11,667 bases of DNA from a virus. Taxonomy: Duplodnaviria; Heunggongvirae; Uroviricota; Caudoviricetes. The DNA is taken from the IMG/VR virus record IMGVR_UViG_2526164618_000009. One strand, given 5' to 3'. The notes beneath the pieces are model-generated. The model was not told the origin of the DNA. It saw only the letters and a list, made by a program, of their open reading frames with translations, and made no database searches. Position 1 is the first letter of the stretch. Every line of letters begins with the position of its first letter. The position numbers and the translations under genes are program-made. Shown here piece by piece: positions 5,760-7,697 of this stretch.

Positions 5760-6301
5760 ATGGCTACTATCCCTGCCCTTTCTCACCCTGACGTAACCAT
5801 CGAAAACGGTCGCGCTGTCACTACGTCTGTTGCGGTTGCAGAGTTCTTCCACAAACGACACGACAATGTGTTACGTGCCATCGCAAATACTGAATGCTCA
5901 CCTGAATTTAACGCCCTCAATTTTGAGGACGTCACCTACACCGACACCAAAGGCGAAAAACGCCCAATGTACCAAATCACCAAAAACGGCTTCGTTTTCC
6001 TGGTGATGGGCTTCACTGGGAAAAAAGCCGCTGCATTCAAAGAGGCCTACATCGCTGATGTTCGACCGCATGGAGGCAGAACTGCACCAGAATAATACCC
6101 CGTCCGCTGACAAGATGATTCCGGGTAACGGTCGCACTCTGGTTGTGCACTTCGACGAACACGGCAATATCAGATTCACCGAAACTGTTCCTGACGGTGC
6201 ACTGGTCTGTACCCTGGATACTTTCCAGTTTTATCTGGAAAAACAGGGGTGGGCTCTTGTAAACCGGAGCGCAATTAAAAATATGACCGTAGAGCAGCTG
6301 C
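5760..6301 (+). pseudogene. Rha-family phage regulatory protein gene, inactivated by a frameshift near 6057-6060 and by IS2 insertion four codons before its stop
   Basis: From ATG 5760: MATIPALSHPDVTIENGRAVTTSVAVAEFFHKRHDNVLRAI...GFTGKKAAAFKEAYIA, typical of the Rha N-terminal domain. After AYIA the frame reads DVRPHGGRTAPE-stop, while the +1 frame continues as expected (MFDRMEAELHQ...VEQLL). IS2 begins at 6302; removing IS2 and one TSD copy restores the ending LSIK-stop at 7649-7651. Confidence 0.6.
6297..6301. repeat. Left copy of the 5-bp target site duplication (GCTGC) of IS2
   Basis: GCTGC immediately precedes the IS2 left end and is repeated immediately after the right end. Confidence 0.85.
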
Positions 6302-6347
6302 TAGACTGGCCCCCTGAATCTCCAGACAACCAGTATCACTTATTTAA

Positions 6348-6758
6348 GTGATAGTCTTAATACCAGTTTTTAGACTTGTCATTGGAGAACAGATTATTGA
6401 TGTCTTAGGGCCGGAGAAACGCAGACGGCGTACCACACAGGAAAAGATCGCAATTGTTCAGCAGAGCTTTGAACCGGGGATGACGGTCTCCCTCGTTGCC
6501 CGGCAACATGGTGTAGCAGCCAGCCAGTTATTTCTCTGGCGTAAGCAATACCAGGAAGGAAGTCTTACTGCTGTGGCCGCCGGAGAACAGGTTGTTCCTG
6601 CCTCTGAACTTGCTGCCGCCATGAAGCAGATTAAAGAACTCCAGCGCCTGCTCGGCAAGAAAACGATGGAAAATGAACTCCTCAAAGAAGCCGTTGAATA
6701 TGGACGGGCAAAAAAGTGGATAGCGCACGCGCCCTTATTGCCCGGGGATGGGGAGTAA
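6348..6758 (+). CDS. insC: IS2 InsC (OrfA); canonical start codon is mutated in this copy
   Basis: Translation contains [52 protein letters not shown]. At 6393-6395, where MIDVLGPEK should begin, the codon is ATT not ATG (cag att att gat gtc); the track ORF starts at an upstream in-frame GTG (6348) inside the terminal repeat. Confidence 0.75.
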
Positions 6759-7621
6759 GCTTAGTCAGCCGTTGTCTCCGGGTGTCGCGTGCGCAGTTGC
6801 ACGTCATTCTCAGACGAACCGATGACTGGATGGATGGCCGCCGCAGTCGTCACACTGATTATACGGATGTGCTTCTCCGTATACACCATGTTATCGGAGA
6901 GCTGCCCACGTATGGTTATCGTCGGGTATGGGCGCTGCTTCGCAGACAGGCAGAACTTGATGGTATGCCTGCGATCAATGCCAAACGTGTTTACCGGCTC
7001 ATGCGCCAGAATGCGCTGTTGCTTGAGCGAAAACCTGCTGTACCGCCATCGAAACGGGCACATACAGGCAGAGTGGCCGTGAAAGAAAGCAATCAGCGAT
7101 GGTGCTCTGACGGGTTCGAGTTCTGCTGTGATAACGGAGAGAGACTGCGTGTCACGTTCGCGCTGGACTGCTGTGATCGTGAGGCACTGCACTGGGCGGT
7201 GACTACCGGCGGCTTCAACAGTGAAACAGTACAGGACGTCATGCTGGGAGCGGTGGAACGCCGCTTCGGCAACGATCTTCCGTCGTCTCCAGTGGAGTGG
7301 CTGACGGATAATGGTTCATGCTACCGGGCTAATGAAACACGCCAGTTCGCCCGGATGTTGGGACTTGAACCGAAGAACACGGCGGTGCGTAGTCCGGAGA
7401 GTAACGGAATAGCAGAGAGCTTCGTGAAAACGATAAAGCGTGACTACATCAGTATCATGCCCAAACCAGACGGGTTAACGGCAGCAAAGAACCTTGCAGA
7501 GGCGTTCGAGCATTATAACGAATGGCATCCGCATAGTGCGCTGGGTTATCGCTCGCCACGGGAATATCTGCGGCAGCGGGCTTGTAATGGGTTAAGTGAT
7601 AACAGATGTCTGGAAATATAG
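6716..7621 (+). CDS. insD: IS2 InsD (OrfB, DDE transposase catalytic part; normally fused to OrfA by -1 frameshift)
   Basis: 301-aa ORF overlapping the insC 3' end in the -1 frame, ending 11 bp before the IS2 right end. Confidence 0.85.
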
Positions 7622-7632
7622 GGGCAAATCCA

Positions 7633-7637
7633 GCTGC
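7633..7637. repeat. Right copy of the 5-bp target site duplication (GCTGC) of IS2
   Basis: Identical to 6297-6301. Confidence 0.85.
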
Positions 7638-7697
7638 TAAGTATTAAATAACTTTCCTGAGATTTCCTTTGTAAGACTGTTTATTAAGGAGGCTTCC

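Follow-up and report, generated by a model that had tools for sequence, protein, structure and literature searches.

A frameshifted and IS2-interrupted Rha-family pseudogene behind isrK- and C4-type RNA genes of a decayed Shigella flexneri prophage of the Rac type

The locus described here belongs to the early-left operon of a Shigella flexneri prophage of the Rac type that has decayed; it adjoins an ipaH effector gene and was analysed within a window of 11,667 nucleotides (record IMGVR_UViG_2526164618_000009). The features of the locus, including its RNA genes, an interrupted Rha-family gene, a copy of IS2 and the downstream genes, are compiled in Table 1. Downstream, kilR, ydaE, racC and recE follow each other on one strand in the order that defines the Rac early-left operon, with recE truncated at codon 474; kilR is intact (73/73 profile positions matched), PF06630 is matched within 7698-9963 (E=9e-37), and a further IS copy starts at about 9968. 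The genes and their order are those of the early-left operon of E. coli K-12 Rac (kilR, ydaE, racC, recE, recT), in contrast to which the repressor region and the part of recE past codon 474 are missing or replaced by IS elements, while ipaH and tail-fibre-assembly remnants lie upstream. The repressor/cro region, present upstream in the E. coli relatives, is absent within the window and recE is truncated by another IS, and therefore the cassette that precedes the Rha-family gene is left without an adjacent circuit to act on.

Table 1. Features of the Rha-family locus and its surroundings (window coordinates).
Feature	Position	Strand	Remarks
Sigma-70-like promoter-like site	5479-5507	+	TTGAAA-17-TATAGT, 10/12; would start isrK at about 5514
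isrK-type sRNA	5514-5590	+	Rfam RF01394, 59.6 bits (gathering 50), E=5.5e-11
45-codon ORF	5591-5728	+	begins directly past the isrK terminator, overlaps C4; position of Gifsy-1 orf45
C4-type antisense RNA	5615-5702	+	Rfam RF01695, 76.7 bits (gathering 45), E=5.6e-14
Downstream C4 target sites	5709-5750	+	a2 5709-5715 GTGGAAA; b2 5742-5750 TCACTCGAG
Rha-family gene, 5' part	5760-6058	+	original frame; whole Pfam Rha domain inside; PF09669 E=1.8e-28
Inserted T	6059	+	+1 frameshift; single 1-base gap against the intact homologue
Rha-family gene, 3' part	6060-6301	+	now out of frame, as far as the IS2 junction
Left target-site duplication	6297-6301		GCTGC, 5 bp
IS2	6302-7632	+	1331 bp; transposase genes read in the same direction as the Rha gene
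Right target-site duplication	7633-7637		GCTGC, 5 bp
Severed end of the Rha gene	7638-7651	+	(C)TA AGT ATT AAA TAA = L-S-I-K-stop
kilR	7698-7919	+	NCBIfam PRK11354, FtsZ inhibitor, 159 bits
ydaE	7913-8089	+	annotation of E. coli relatives
racC (ORF)	8116-8439	+	annotation of E. coli relatives
recE, cut short at 474 codons	8539-9963	+	adjoins an element of the IS3 family

What remains of the gene is a Rha-family pseudogene, in agreement with the family assignment of an earlier note on this DNA. The Rha domain (PF09669), recognized in the truncated product, is found with E=1.3e-31 in the repaired protein, which scores 109.4 bits against a cut-off of 29.9, and TIGR02681 gives 118.5 bits against a cut-off of 45.95. 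The N-terminal domain thus lies above both curated cut-offs, as in Rha-family regulators such as phi80 Rha; the gene of the window differs from these in being frameshifted and IS-interrupted, and in having a C-terminal half that matches no Pfam family and for which no relatives of solved structure were found by sequence. The intact homologue comprises 184 residues, and no comparable uninterrupted frame exists in the window, owing to the T inserted at 6059 and to IS2 at 6302. E. coli and Salmonella prophages carry hundreds of homologues (80-92% identical), and the best 120 of 1823 database homologues are single polypeptides that each cover 98-100% of the repaired protein. Along these lines, 341 E. 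coli genomes cover at least 80% of 5760-6301, and the first 15 listed each annotate a single Rha-family gene.

The disabling lesion is the frameshift, which parts the Rha domain from the C-terminal half. Alignment with intact Rha homologues placed the single-base indel, suspected near 6057, at exactly one extra T: where the window reads GCTGATGTTCGAC the homologue has GCTGA-GTTCGAC, and only T6059 is unmatched (GCTGA[T]GTTC). The intact E. coli homologues aligned (7/7) read ...KEAYIAEFDRMEAEL as a single gene (AEFDRMEAEL), and at this point ...YIAEFDRMEAEL... is read in P0140, an intact allele of S. flexneri that matches the window exactly over its N-terminal half. The two frames are thus not separate genes, since the homologues read through them as one; past T6059 the original frame runs into a stop at 6093-6095. 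Programmed frameshifting was considered and rejected, as GCU-GAU-GUU offers no slippery run and the homologues all use a single frame.

The ends of the IS2 copy were set by alignment with IS2A of K-12 (NC_000913 381260-382590), which is ungapped, of the same length and 99.1% identical (12 substitutions), with identical terminal bases (first and last 12). An ungapped comparison of the inverted repeats (14/44 matches) was uninformative, because the terminal repeats of IS2 are imperfect and gapped. K-12 IS2A is flanked by a 5-bp repeat of its own, ATTAC; in the window, the GCTGC duplications claimed earlier were confirmed, with exactly 1331 bases between them, and the uninterrupted homologue has one copy of the equivalent sequence. 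Since the K-12 IS2A alignment defines the ends of the element, random 5-bp flanks would match with a probability of about 1/1024. Excision of 6302-7637 in silico, that is, of IS2 and one GCTGC copy, yields ...NMTVEQLLSIK* with the stop at 7649-7651, precisely the ending ...VEQLLSIK-stop that had been predicted, and the C-terminus so reconstructed is identical to that of the intact E. coli protein WP_000887681.1. Within the element, orfB (6716-7621) scores 722.9 bits against NCBIfam NF006918, "IS2 transposase TnpB" (cut-off 597), the DDE (rve) transposase is recognized, and the A6G motif for -1 frameshifting between orfA and orfB, AAAAAAG, lies at 6710-6716. The start codon of orfA has changed from ATG to ATT (6393-6395), a state that is polymorphic at this same insertion, other S. 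flexneri genomes retaining ATG. The autonomy of the copy is therefore doubtful, while its membership in IS2 stands. The element entered the fourth-last codon of the Rha gene, such that IS2 by itself keeps ...VEQLL and exchanges SIK for 15 other residues (ORF 6058-6351). The description of the gene as "doubly inactivated" accordingly says too much of IS2, which alone swaps only the last three residues.

Five IS elements, IS2 among them, have multiplied in every Shigella species, and IS2 is a major cause of pseudogenes there (PMC7373316). The copy in the window resembles those behind other IS2-driven gene decay in Shigella in its length of 1331 bp, its K-12 IS2A-like ends, the 5-bp target duplication, and orfA and orfB with the A6G motif; it differs by the loss of the orfA start codon and by an insertion point so far 3' that just three residues change.

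Both lesions are real and old, and are not assembly errors, since they occur together in every related complete genome examined, S. flexneri 2a 301 included; they are also present in lineages that diverge upstream of about 5436 (L010/L027 and L026). The two aberrant products, of 210 and 97 residues, have exact matches in 242 and 358 collection blocks, respectively, and co-occur in 18/18 places shown by exact-protein look-up; contigs longer than 1 Mb, from different projects, occur in about 20 of the blocks, and the sources name the products as S. flexneri proteins, strain 2a 301 among them. Against this background, the suggestion that only the IS2 insertion is real, the frameshift having arisen in sequencing or assembly, deserves next to no credence. 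Single-base indels are indeed the commonest assembly error, but T6059 is flanked by A and G and therefore does not lie in a homopolymer, so that the worry about a homopolymer error voiced in the earlier note does not apply; the extra T is shared by many independent assemblies, and the exact DNA pattern recurs in two further chromosomes. A gapped DNA pattern covering both frameshift states of the allele found the frameshifted state only, in these two chromosomes, among species-representative genomes. Neither this pattern nor the exact empty-site pattern without IS2 had a match in metagenomes. An allele with a single lesion was found neither by protein look-ups nor by DNA patterns, and the proposed order, in which the frameshift came first and IS2 then inserted, was for that reason not borne out.

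Among about 12 distinct related genomes, 5760-6301 has one variable site in 542 nt, flanking non-coding DNA none in 281 and flanking coding DNA two in 868, numbers that give no power to distinguish the conservation of the RNA cassette from that of the pseudogene within S. flexneri. The low variation shows recency and not selection, because the flanking non-coding and coding DNA is equally invariant. This bears on the idea that the split gene is functional, with a 111-residue Rha-only product, possibly joined by a 97-residue C-terminal product from ATG 6058, serving as a dominant-negative or stand-alone DNA binder. In its favour, the Pfam Rha domain is complete in the truncated product (residues 21-99), an AAGAGG precedes ATG 6058 by 12 nt, and the single variable site across the gene could be read as constraint, but the invariance of the flanks speaks for recency, the spacing between AAGAGG and ATG is longer than usual, the 97-residue product bears an IS2-derived tail, and none of the best 120 of the 1823 homologues (0/120) is split at the T6059 point. 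A functional split is thus very improbable, although the 111-residue product with its whole Rha domain may have residual activity.

The public annotation starts the gene at 5463 and reads through both RNA genes, which is probably wrong. Upstream of 5760, substitutions are spread flat over the codon positions (506/576/606), with a ratio of synonymous to nonsynonymous changes of 197:806; from 5760 onward, a strong excess at the third position appears (592/421/1342), with a coding-like ratio of 893:829. Because the coding-like pattern begins there, and because the promoter-like site lies 3' of the annotated ATG 5463, the true start of the gene is most probably 5760. The promoter was called by its match to the consensus only, the regional total of such matches being no higher than in shuffled sequence; the position of the site agrees with the isrK start given by Rfam.

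The Rha gene is, as far as can be judged from the arrangement of the RNA elements, the regulated cargo of an isrK and C4 antisense-RNA cassette (5514-5702), which the earlier note had overlooked. The isrK gene ends in an intrinsic terminator (stem 5568-5585 followed by a T run), and the C4 match spans the full model, positions 1-87 of 87. Two segments of C4, loop b' (5659-5667, CTCGAGTGA) and the single-stranded a' (5674-5680, TTTCCAC), are complementary to targets on both sides: upstream within isrK, a1 (5539-5545, GTGGAAA) and b1 (5556-5562, ACTCGAG), and downstream a2 and b2. The latter site ends 9 nt before ATG 5760 and overlaps the GAGGA Shine-Dalgarno sequence (5748-5752, 8 nt before the ATG). 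Upstream site, C4 loop and downstream site co-vary over six allele types (window/L028, L001, L029, L030, L032 and Gifsy-1). The coding status of the small ORF that overlaps C4 is doubtful, because its length is not conserved among E. coli relatives, with 45 codons in the window, L028 and L030 and 27-28 in L001, L024, L029 and L032.

A comparable arrangement is the isrK-orf45-anrP system of Gifsy-1 in Salmonella, in which AnrP is antirepressor-like (Hershko-Shalev et al. 2016, PMC4825925). Gifsy-1 (isrK-orf45-anrP-isrJ) shares the order and spacing of isrK, a C4-type RNA and an antirepressor-like gene downstream, and loop-target complementarity at the same relative positions; in the window, a 45-codon ORF at the place of orf45 overlaps C4. 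It differs in that its RNA cassette stands after Q and is followed by isrJ, whereas the cassette of the window lies in a Rac-type early-left operon with no isrJ found; moreover, the E. coli relatives do not conserve the small ORF, and the cargo in the window is a pseudogene. This cargo was rejected as an orthologue of Gifsy-1 AnrP (BLASTP E=0.1 against STM2616), and therefore the analogy with Gifsy-1 lies in the RNA cassette alone. The cassette behaves as a portable module, because the gene that follows varies among relatives and the Gifsy-1 cassette sits elsewhere.

The immI region of P1 and P7 (c4, icd, ant) likewise has a C4-family RNA with two antisense sites and targets up- and downstream, a downstream b site over a ribosome-binding site, and a specificity that varies between alleles. 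P1/P7 heteroimmunity, with C4 specificity differing between P1 and P7, was reportedly described by Citron and Schuster in 1990. No icd-like gene is evident in the window, where the target lies directly on the ribosome-binding site of the cargo gene, in contrast to P1 immI; furthermore, the element is lambdoid/Rac-like, while P1 is a plasmid prophage. In P1, expression of Ant is under C4 antisense RNA control (PMC8201110). An identity of the cargo with Ant of phi24B, which has been studied experimentally, was rejected, as phi24B ant encodes an AntA/P22-Ant-C protein in the nin region, and the Rha-domain gene of that phage is a separate one, roi.

By analogy with P1 immI (c4-icd-ant) and Gifsy-1 (isrK-orf45-anrP), the Rha-family cargo would most likely have been a switch of antirepressor type, directed at the repressor circuit of the prophage, as its context and family labels suggest. 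Both halves of the protein have matches among PHROG families that carry the label "anti-repressor", and the best PHROG over the full length reads just "transcriptional regulator", both being annotation labels. In intact relatives, the promoter would drive isrK, read-through of the isrK terminator would yield a leader from which C4 is cut, and a' and b' of C4 would find their partners in a1/b1 of isrK and in a2/b2 just before the gene, where b2 covers the Shine-Dalgarno sequence of a 184-residue protein consisting of an N-terminal Rha domain of DNA-binding type and a small C-terminal domain. In S. flexneri, the extra T6059 stops translation 12 codons past the Rha domain, with loss of the C-terminal half, and IS2 inserted before or after it by its normal mechanism, duplicating GCTGC, as one of two independent lesions. 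Taken together, we consider it highly probable that the locus is the pseudogene cargo of an isrK/C4-controlled cassette in the decayed Rac-type early-left operon of S. flexneri, beside ipaH.

It had also been proposed that Rha controlled the downstream module and that its loss changed the expression of that module, for which no support was found. Such a role as transcriptional regulator of kilR-ydaE-racC-recE could be rationalized by the Rha gene being co-oriented with and adjacent to these genes, and by the description of the family as phage regulatory with a domain of DNA-binding type. It is, however, distinctly unlikely: in the E. coli relatives the downstream genes form a standard Rac early-left operon, 3' of a divergent pair of repressor/cro type, the gene after the same Rha cassette differs among relatives (kilR, a YdaE-family gene or dicB), the Gifsy-1 cassette follows Q and precedes isrJ, and the Rha gene would itself be regulated cargo of isrK/C4. 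Any effect on downstream expression would come from simple polarity or from IS2 read-out and not from the loss of a Rha regulator, because IS2 puts 1.3 kb between the promoter-like site preceding isrK, the only one nearby, and kilR. The same separation could be taken to mean that the insertion was selected, either shielding kilR, a toxic inhibitor of FtsZ, from the isrK promoter and its read-through or driving kilR from IS2, and it would fit that kilR is intact in an otherwise decayed element and that no intrinsic terminator is predicted on the + strand within 6229-7750. Selection of the insertion is nevertheless extremely doubtful, as a consensus scan detected no hybrid outward promoter at the right IS2 junction and drift suffices in S. 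flexneri, which has hundreds of IS copies, a third of the sites being common to lineages by descent (PMC7373316).

While the protein cargo is dead, the RNA half, comprising the promoter-like site, isrK, C4 and the four target sites, is fully intact, and some S. flexneri contigs, as well as E. coli FDAARGOS_943, have cassettes of the same specificity with intact cargo. It is conceivable, if rather unlikely, that this half has been kept as an RNA-only immunity remnant, whose C4 would block in trans the antirepressor-type gene of an incoming or co-resident phage of the same specificity, with IsrK perhaps likewise acting in trans.

Decay of prophage genes through IS elements and frameshifts is the ordinary, expected state of Shigella genomes and a known kind of event, and public S. 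flexneri records have contained both pieces of this Rha gene from strain 2a 301 onward. The importance of the locus beyond its correct annotation is thus small: it should be annotated as one Rha-family pseudogene from 5760, preceded by isrK and C4 RNA genes, and neither as two hypothetical proteins nor as an "Ash-Rha" fusion ORF. As S. flexneri lineage markers, the T6059 allele and the junction with IS2 are both stable, and the allelic series of co-varying C4 loops and targets in Rac-type prophages is a handy natural data set for the specificity of antisense-RNA immunity.

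The Rha-family gene beginning at 5760 carries an inserted T at 6059 and an IS2 element at 6302-7632. Alignment of the IS2-excised reconstruction with an intact E. coli homologue (locus L001, WP_000887681.1) gave a single 1-base gap, opposite T6059 (GCTGA[T]GTTCGAC versus GCTGAGTTCGAC), which pins down the single-base indel earlier placed near 6057. Across this site 7/7 intact E. coli homologues read KEAYIAEFDRMEAEL, and with one exception they end in LLSIK or LLSLK. Two separate genes are not what the homologues depict: the best 120 of 1823 in the database are each one chain covering 98-100% of the repaired protein (translated without T6059 and IS2), 5760-6301 is covered to at least 80% in 341 complete E. 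coli genomes with one Rha-family gene annotated in 15 of the 15 listed, and P0140, an intact S. flexneri allele whose N-terminal half is that of the window, has its frame unbroken through the site. The two frames are thus one gene and the lesion is an inserted T, which lies outside any homopolymer and thus removes the concern about a homopolymer error.

The GCTGC copies at 6297-6301 and 7633-7637 enclose 1331 bases that align without gaps, at equal length and with 12 substitutions (99.1%), to E. coli K-12 IS2A, which is likewise flanked by a 5-bp repeat; the terminal bases are identical, and the large ORF scores 722.9 bits against NCBIfam IS2 TnpB (cut-off 597 bits). Removal of 6302-7637 yields ...GAG CAG CTG C/TA AGT ATT AAA TAA (slash, junction), that is ...VEQLLSIK-stop with the stop at 7649-7651, exactly the duplication and ending reconstructed in the earlier note. 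The orfA (insC) start codon at 6393-6395 is ATT, and ATG is retained in IS2 at the same insertion site in four other S. flexneri genomes (L005, L008, L009, L014). Gene conversion between IS2 copies is suggested, because 17 sites vary in the 1331 bp of IS2, whereas the flanks (5479-6301 plus 7633-8500, 1691 bp) have 3. In L014 (CP026765.1) one C is missing from the C-run at the IS2 left end (equivalent to window 6310), so that the junction ORF grows from 97 to 104 aa; the missing base may be genuine variation or a sequencing error in the homopolymer.

The frameshift leads to a translation stop at 6093-6095, and the 111-aa product keeps the entire Rha domain (PF09669, residues 21-99) and loses the C-terminal 84 residues. 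Since IS2 by itself preserves ...VEQLL and only swaps SIK for 15 other residues, the description "doubly inactivated" is too strong; the frameshift is one clear knockout, and IS2 causes a terminal tail swap and adds a 1.3 kb spacer before the following genes. The exact 210-aa product specific to the frameshift occurs in 242 collection blocks and the exact 97-aa product specific to the IS2 junction in 358, the two being adjacent in 18/18 places shown. DNA-pattern search found the frameshifted state in two further chromosomes, and some genomes that diverge sharply upstream of about 5436 carry both lesions, a distribution consistent with IS insertions passed down by an ancestor early in S. flexneri history (PMC7373316). 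As neither exact-product look-ups nor DNA-pattern searches found an allele with only one lesion, the proposed order, IS2 after the frameshift, is unproven.

PGAP and gene callers place the start codon at 5463, with the frame running through two RNA genes, isrK and C4, which lie directly upstream, and so produce 282-aa "Ash + Rha" proteins; the extension (5463-5759, about 99 codons), also annotated in L001, L024 and L028-L032, matches the Pfam "Ash protein family" (PF10554) at 54 bits. Among eight sequences, substitutions upstream of 5760 are flat by codon position (506/576/606; synonymous:nonsynonymous 197:806), and the part that starts at 5760 shows a coding-like pattern (592/421/1342; 893:829). 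Together with the position of ATG 5463 ahead of a promoter-like site, these statistics bear out the start at 5760 assumed in the earlier note, which is probably the real one. At least in the isrK/C4 context, the "Ash" domain resembles the translation of an RNA gene that is free of stops by chance.

The isrK terminator is in place. In C4, both loop b' (CTCGAGTGA) and segment a' (TTTCCAC) are complementary to two sites, one within isrK and one downstream. Loop, upstream target and downstream target co-vary at equal relative positions in six allele types (window/L028, L001, L029, L030, L032, Gifsy-1), following the C4 logic by which P1/P7 immI controls antirepressor expression (PMC8201110). Gifsy-1 has the identical RNA layout before the antirepressor-like AnrP (PMC4825925), a protein without sequence relation to that of the window; the RNA cassette is thus shared and its cargo interchangeable. 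For each half of the repaired protein there are matches to PHROG families labelled anti-repressor, and the best full-length family bears only the label "transcriptional regulator"; the intact protein is probably an antirepressor-type switch. What is added here to an otherwise correct and precise observation, exact in its coordinates, is a set of annotation fixes and a new reading of the gene, as the now dead cargo of an isrK/C4 cassette that is itself intact. As the only mildly novel possibility, the surviving RNA half might still act in trans on phages that share its specificity. By a'/b' specificity (5659-5680 and equivalents in L001, L029, L030, L032 and L011, i.e. Gifsy-1) at least five or six types occur among otherwise close relatives, each with matching upstream and downstream targets; they form a naturally occurring series of alleles that differ in antisense immunity specificity.

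Nothing indicates that Rha controlled the downstream module, as had been considered; the gene following the cassette varies among relatives (kilR, a YdaE-family gene or dicB). Downstream lie KilR, YdaE, RacC and a RecE that an IS3-family element truncates at codon 474; they form the Rac early-left operon, in line with the annotation of E. coli relatives. If IS2 affects kilR at all, it would do so by polarity or read-out; neither terminator nor hybrid promoter was predicted there. The full-length kilR sits inside an otherwise heavily decayed prophage, and IS2 now separates it from the upstream promoters.

Features of the window
Feature	Coordinates	Strand	Remarks
IS1 InsA-like ORF	405-680	-	spotted by eye; related loci have IS1 genes at about that position
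CssrB, Shigella sRNA	911-1093	-	Rfam RF02799, 151.6 bits, full-length match
ipaH-type E3-ligase effector gene, intact	1222-2937	+	NEL, LRR_TTSS domains
Tail-fibre-assembly-like remnant (DUF4376)	3117-3494	-	adjoins ipaH gene
Chimeric ORF	3658-4239	-	HTH_23-type N-terminus plus IS3-type HTH_Tnp_1 segment
Promoter-like site	5479-5507
isrK	5514-5590	as Rha gene	Rfam, 59.6 bits
C4 antisense RNA	5615-5702	as Rha gene	Rfam, 76.7 bits, full-length
Target site b2	5742-5750		ends 9 nt before ATG 5760; overlaps GAGGA
A6G frameshift motif of IS2	6710-6716
kilR (FtsZ inhibitor)	7698-7919		full-length, 73/73 profile positions
recE, cut to 474 codons	8539-9963		2691 nt in E. coli L001; IS3-family element begins at cut
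IS3-family element	9968-11230	-	orfA 10865-11167, orfB 10011-10829
IS66-family transposase fragment	11218-11667		runs past window end

The window originates from Shigella flexneri: positions 1-11230 share 99.9% identity with complete chromosomes found by exact-protein look-up, and the sources assign the matching proteins to S. flexneri, strain 2a 301 included. The biology is that of ordinary Shigella prophage decay in an already published genome. E. coli relatives have a repressor/cro-type divergent pair 1-2 kb upstream; homology of the window to them starts only at about 4384, within ydfC, and beyond lie IS fragments, the tail-fibre-assembly remnant and ipaH. The chimeric ORF suggests stacked IS fragments. 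The ipaH effector, with CssrB just upstream on the opposite strand, sits at the tail end of the prophage remnant and resembles a cargo ("moron") gene. In L010/L027 (CP178302.1) and L026 (CP182556.1), which have both frameshift and IS2, the strong divergence in the region equivalent to window 5230-5436 indicates a recombination breakpoint directly ahead of the isrK promoter. Although its title reads E. coli, CP178302.1 is a Shigella-like 4.44-Mb chromosome with ipaH.
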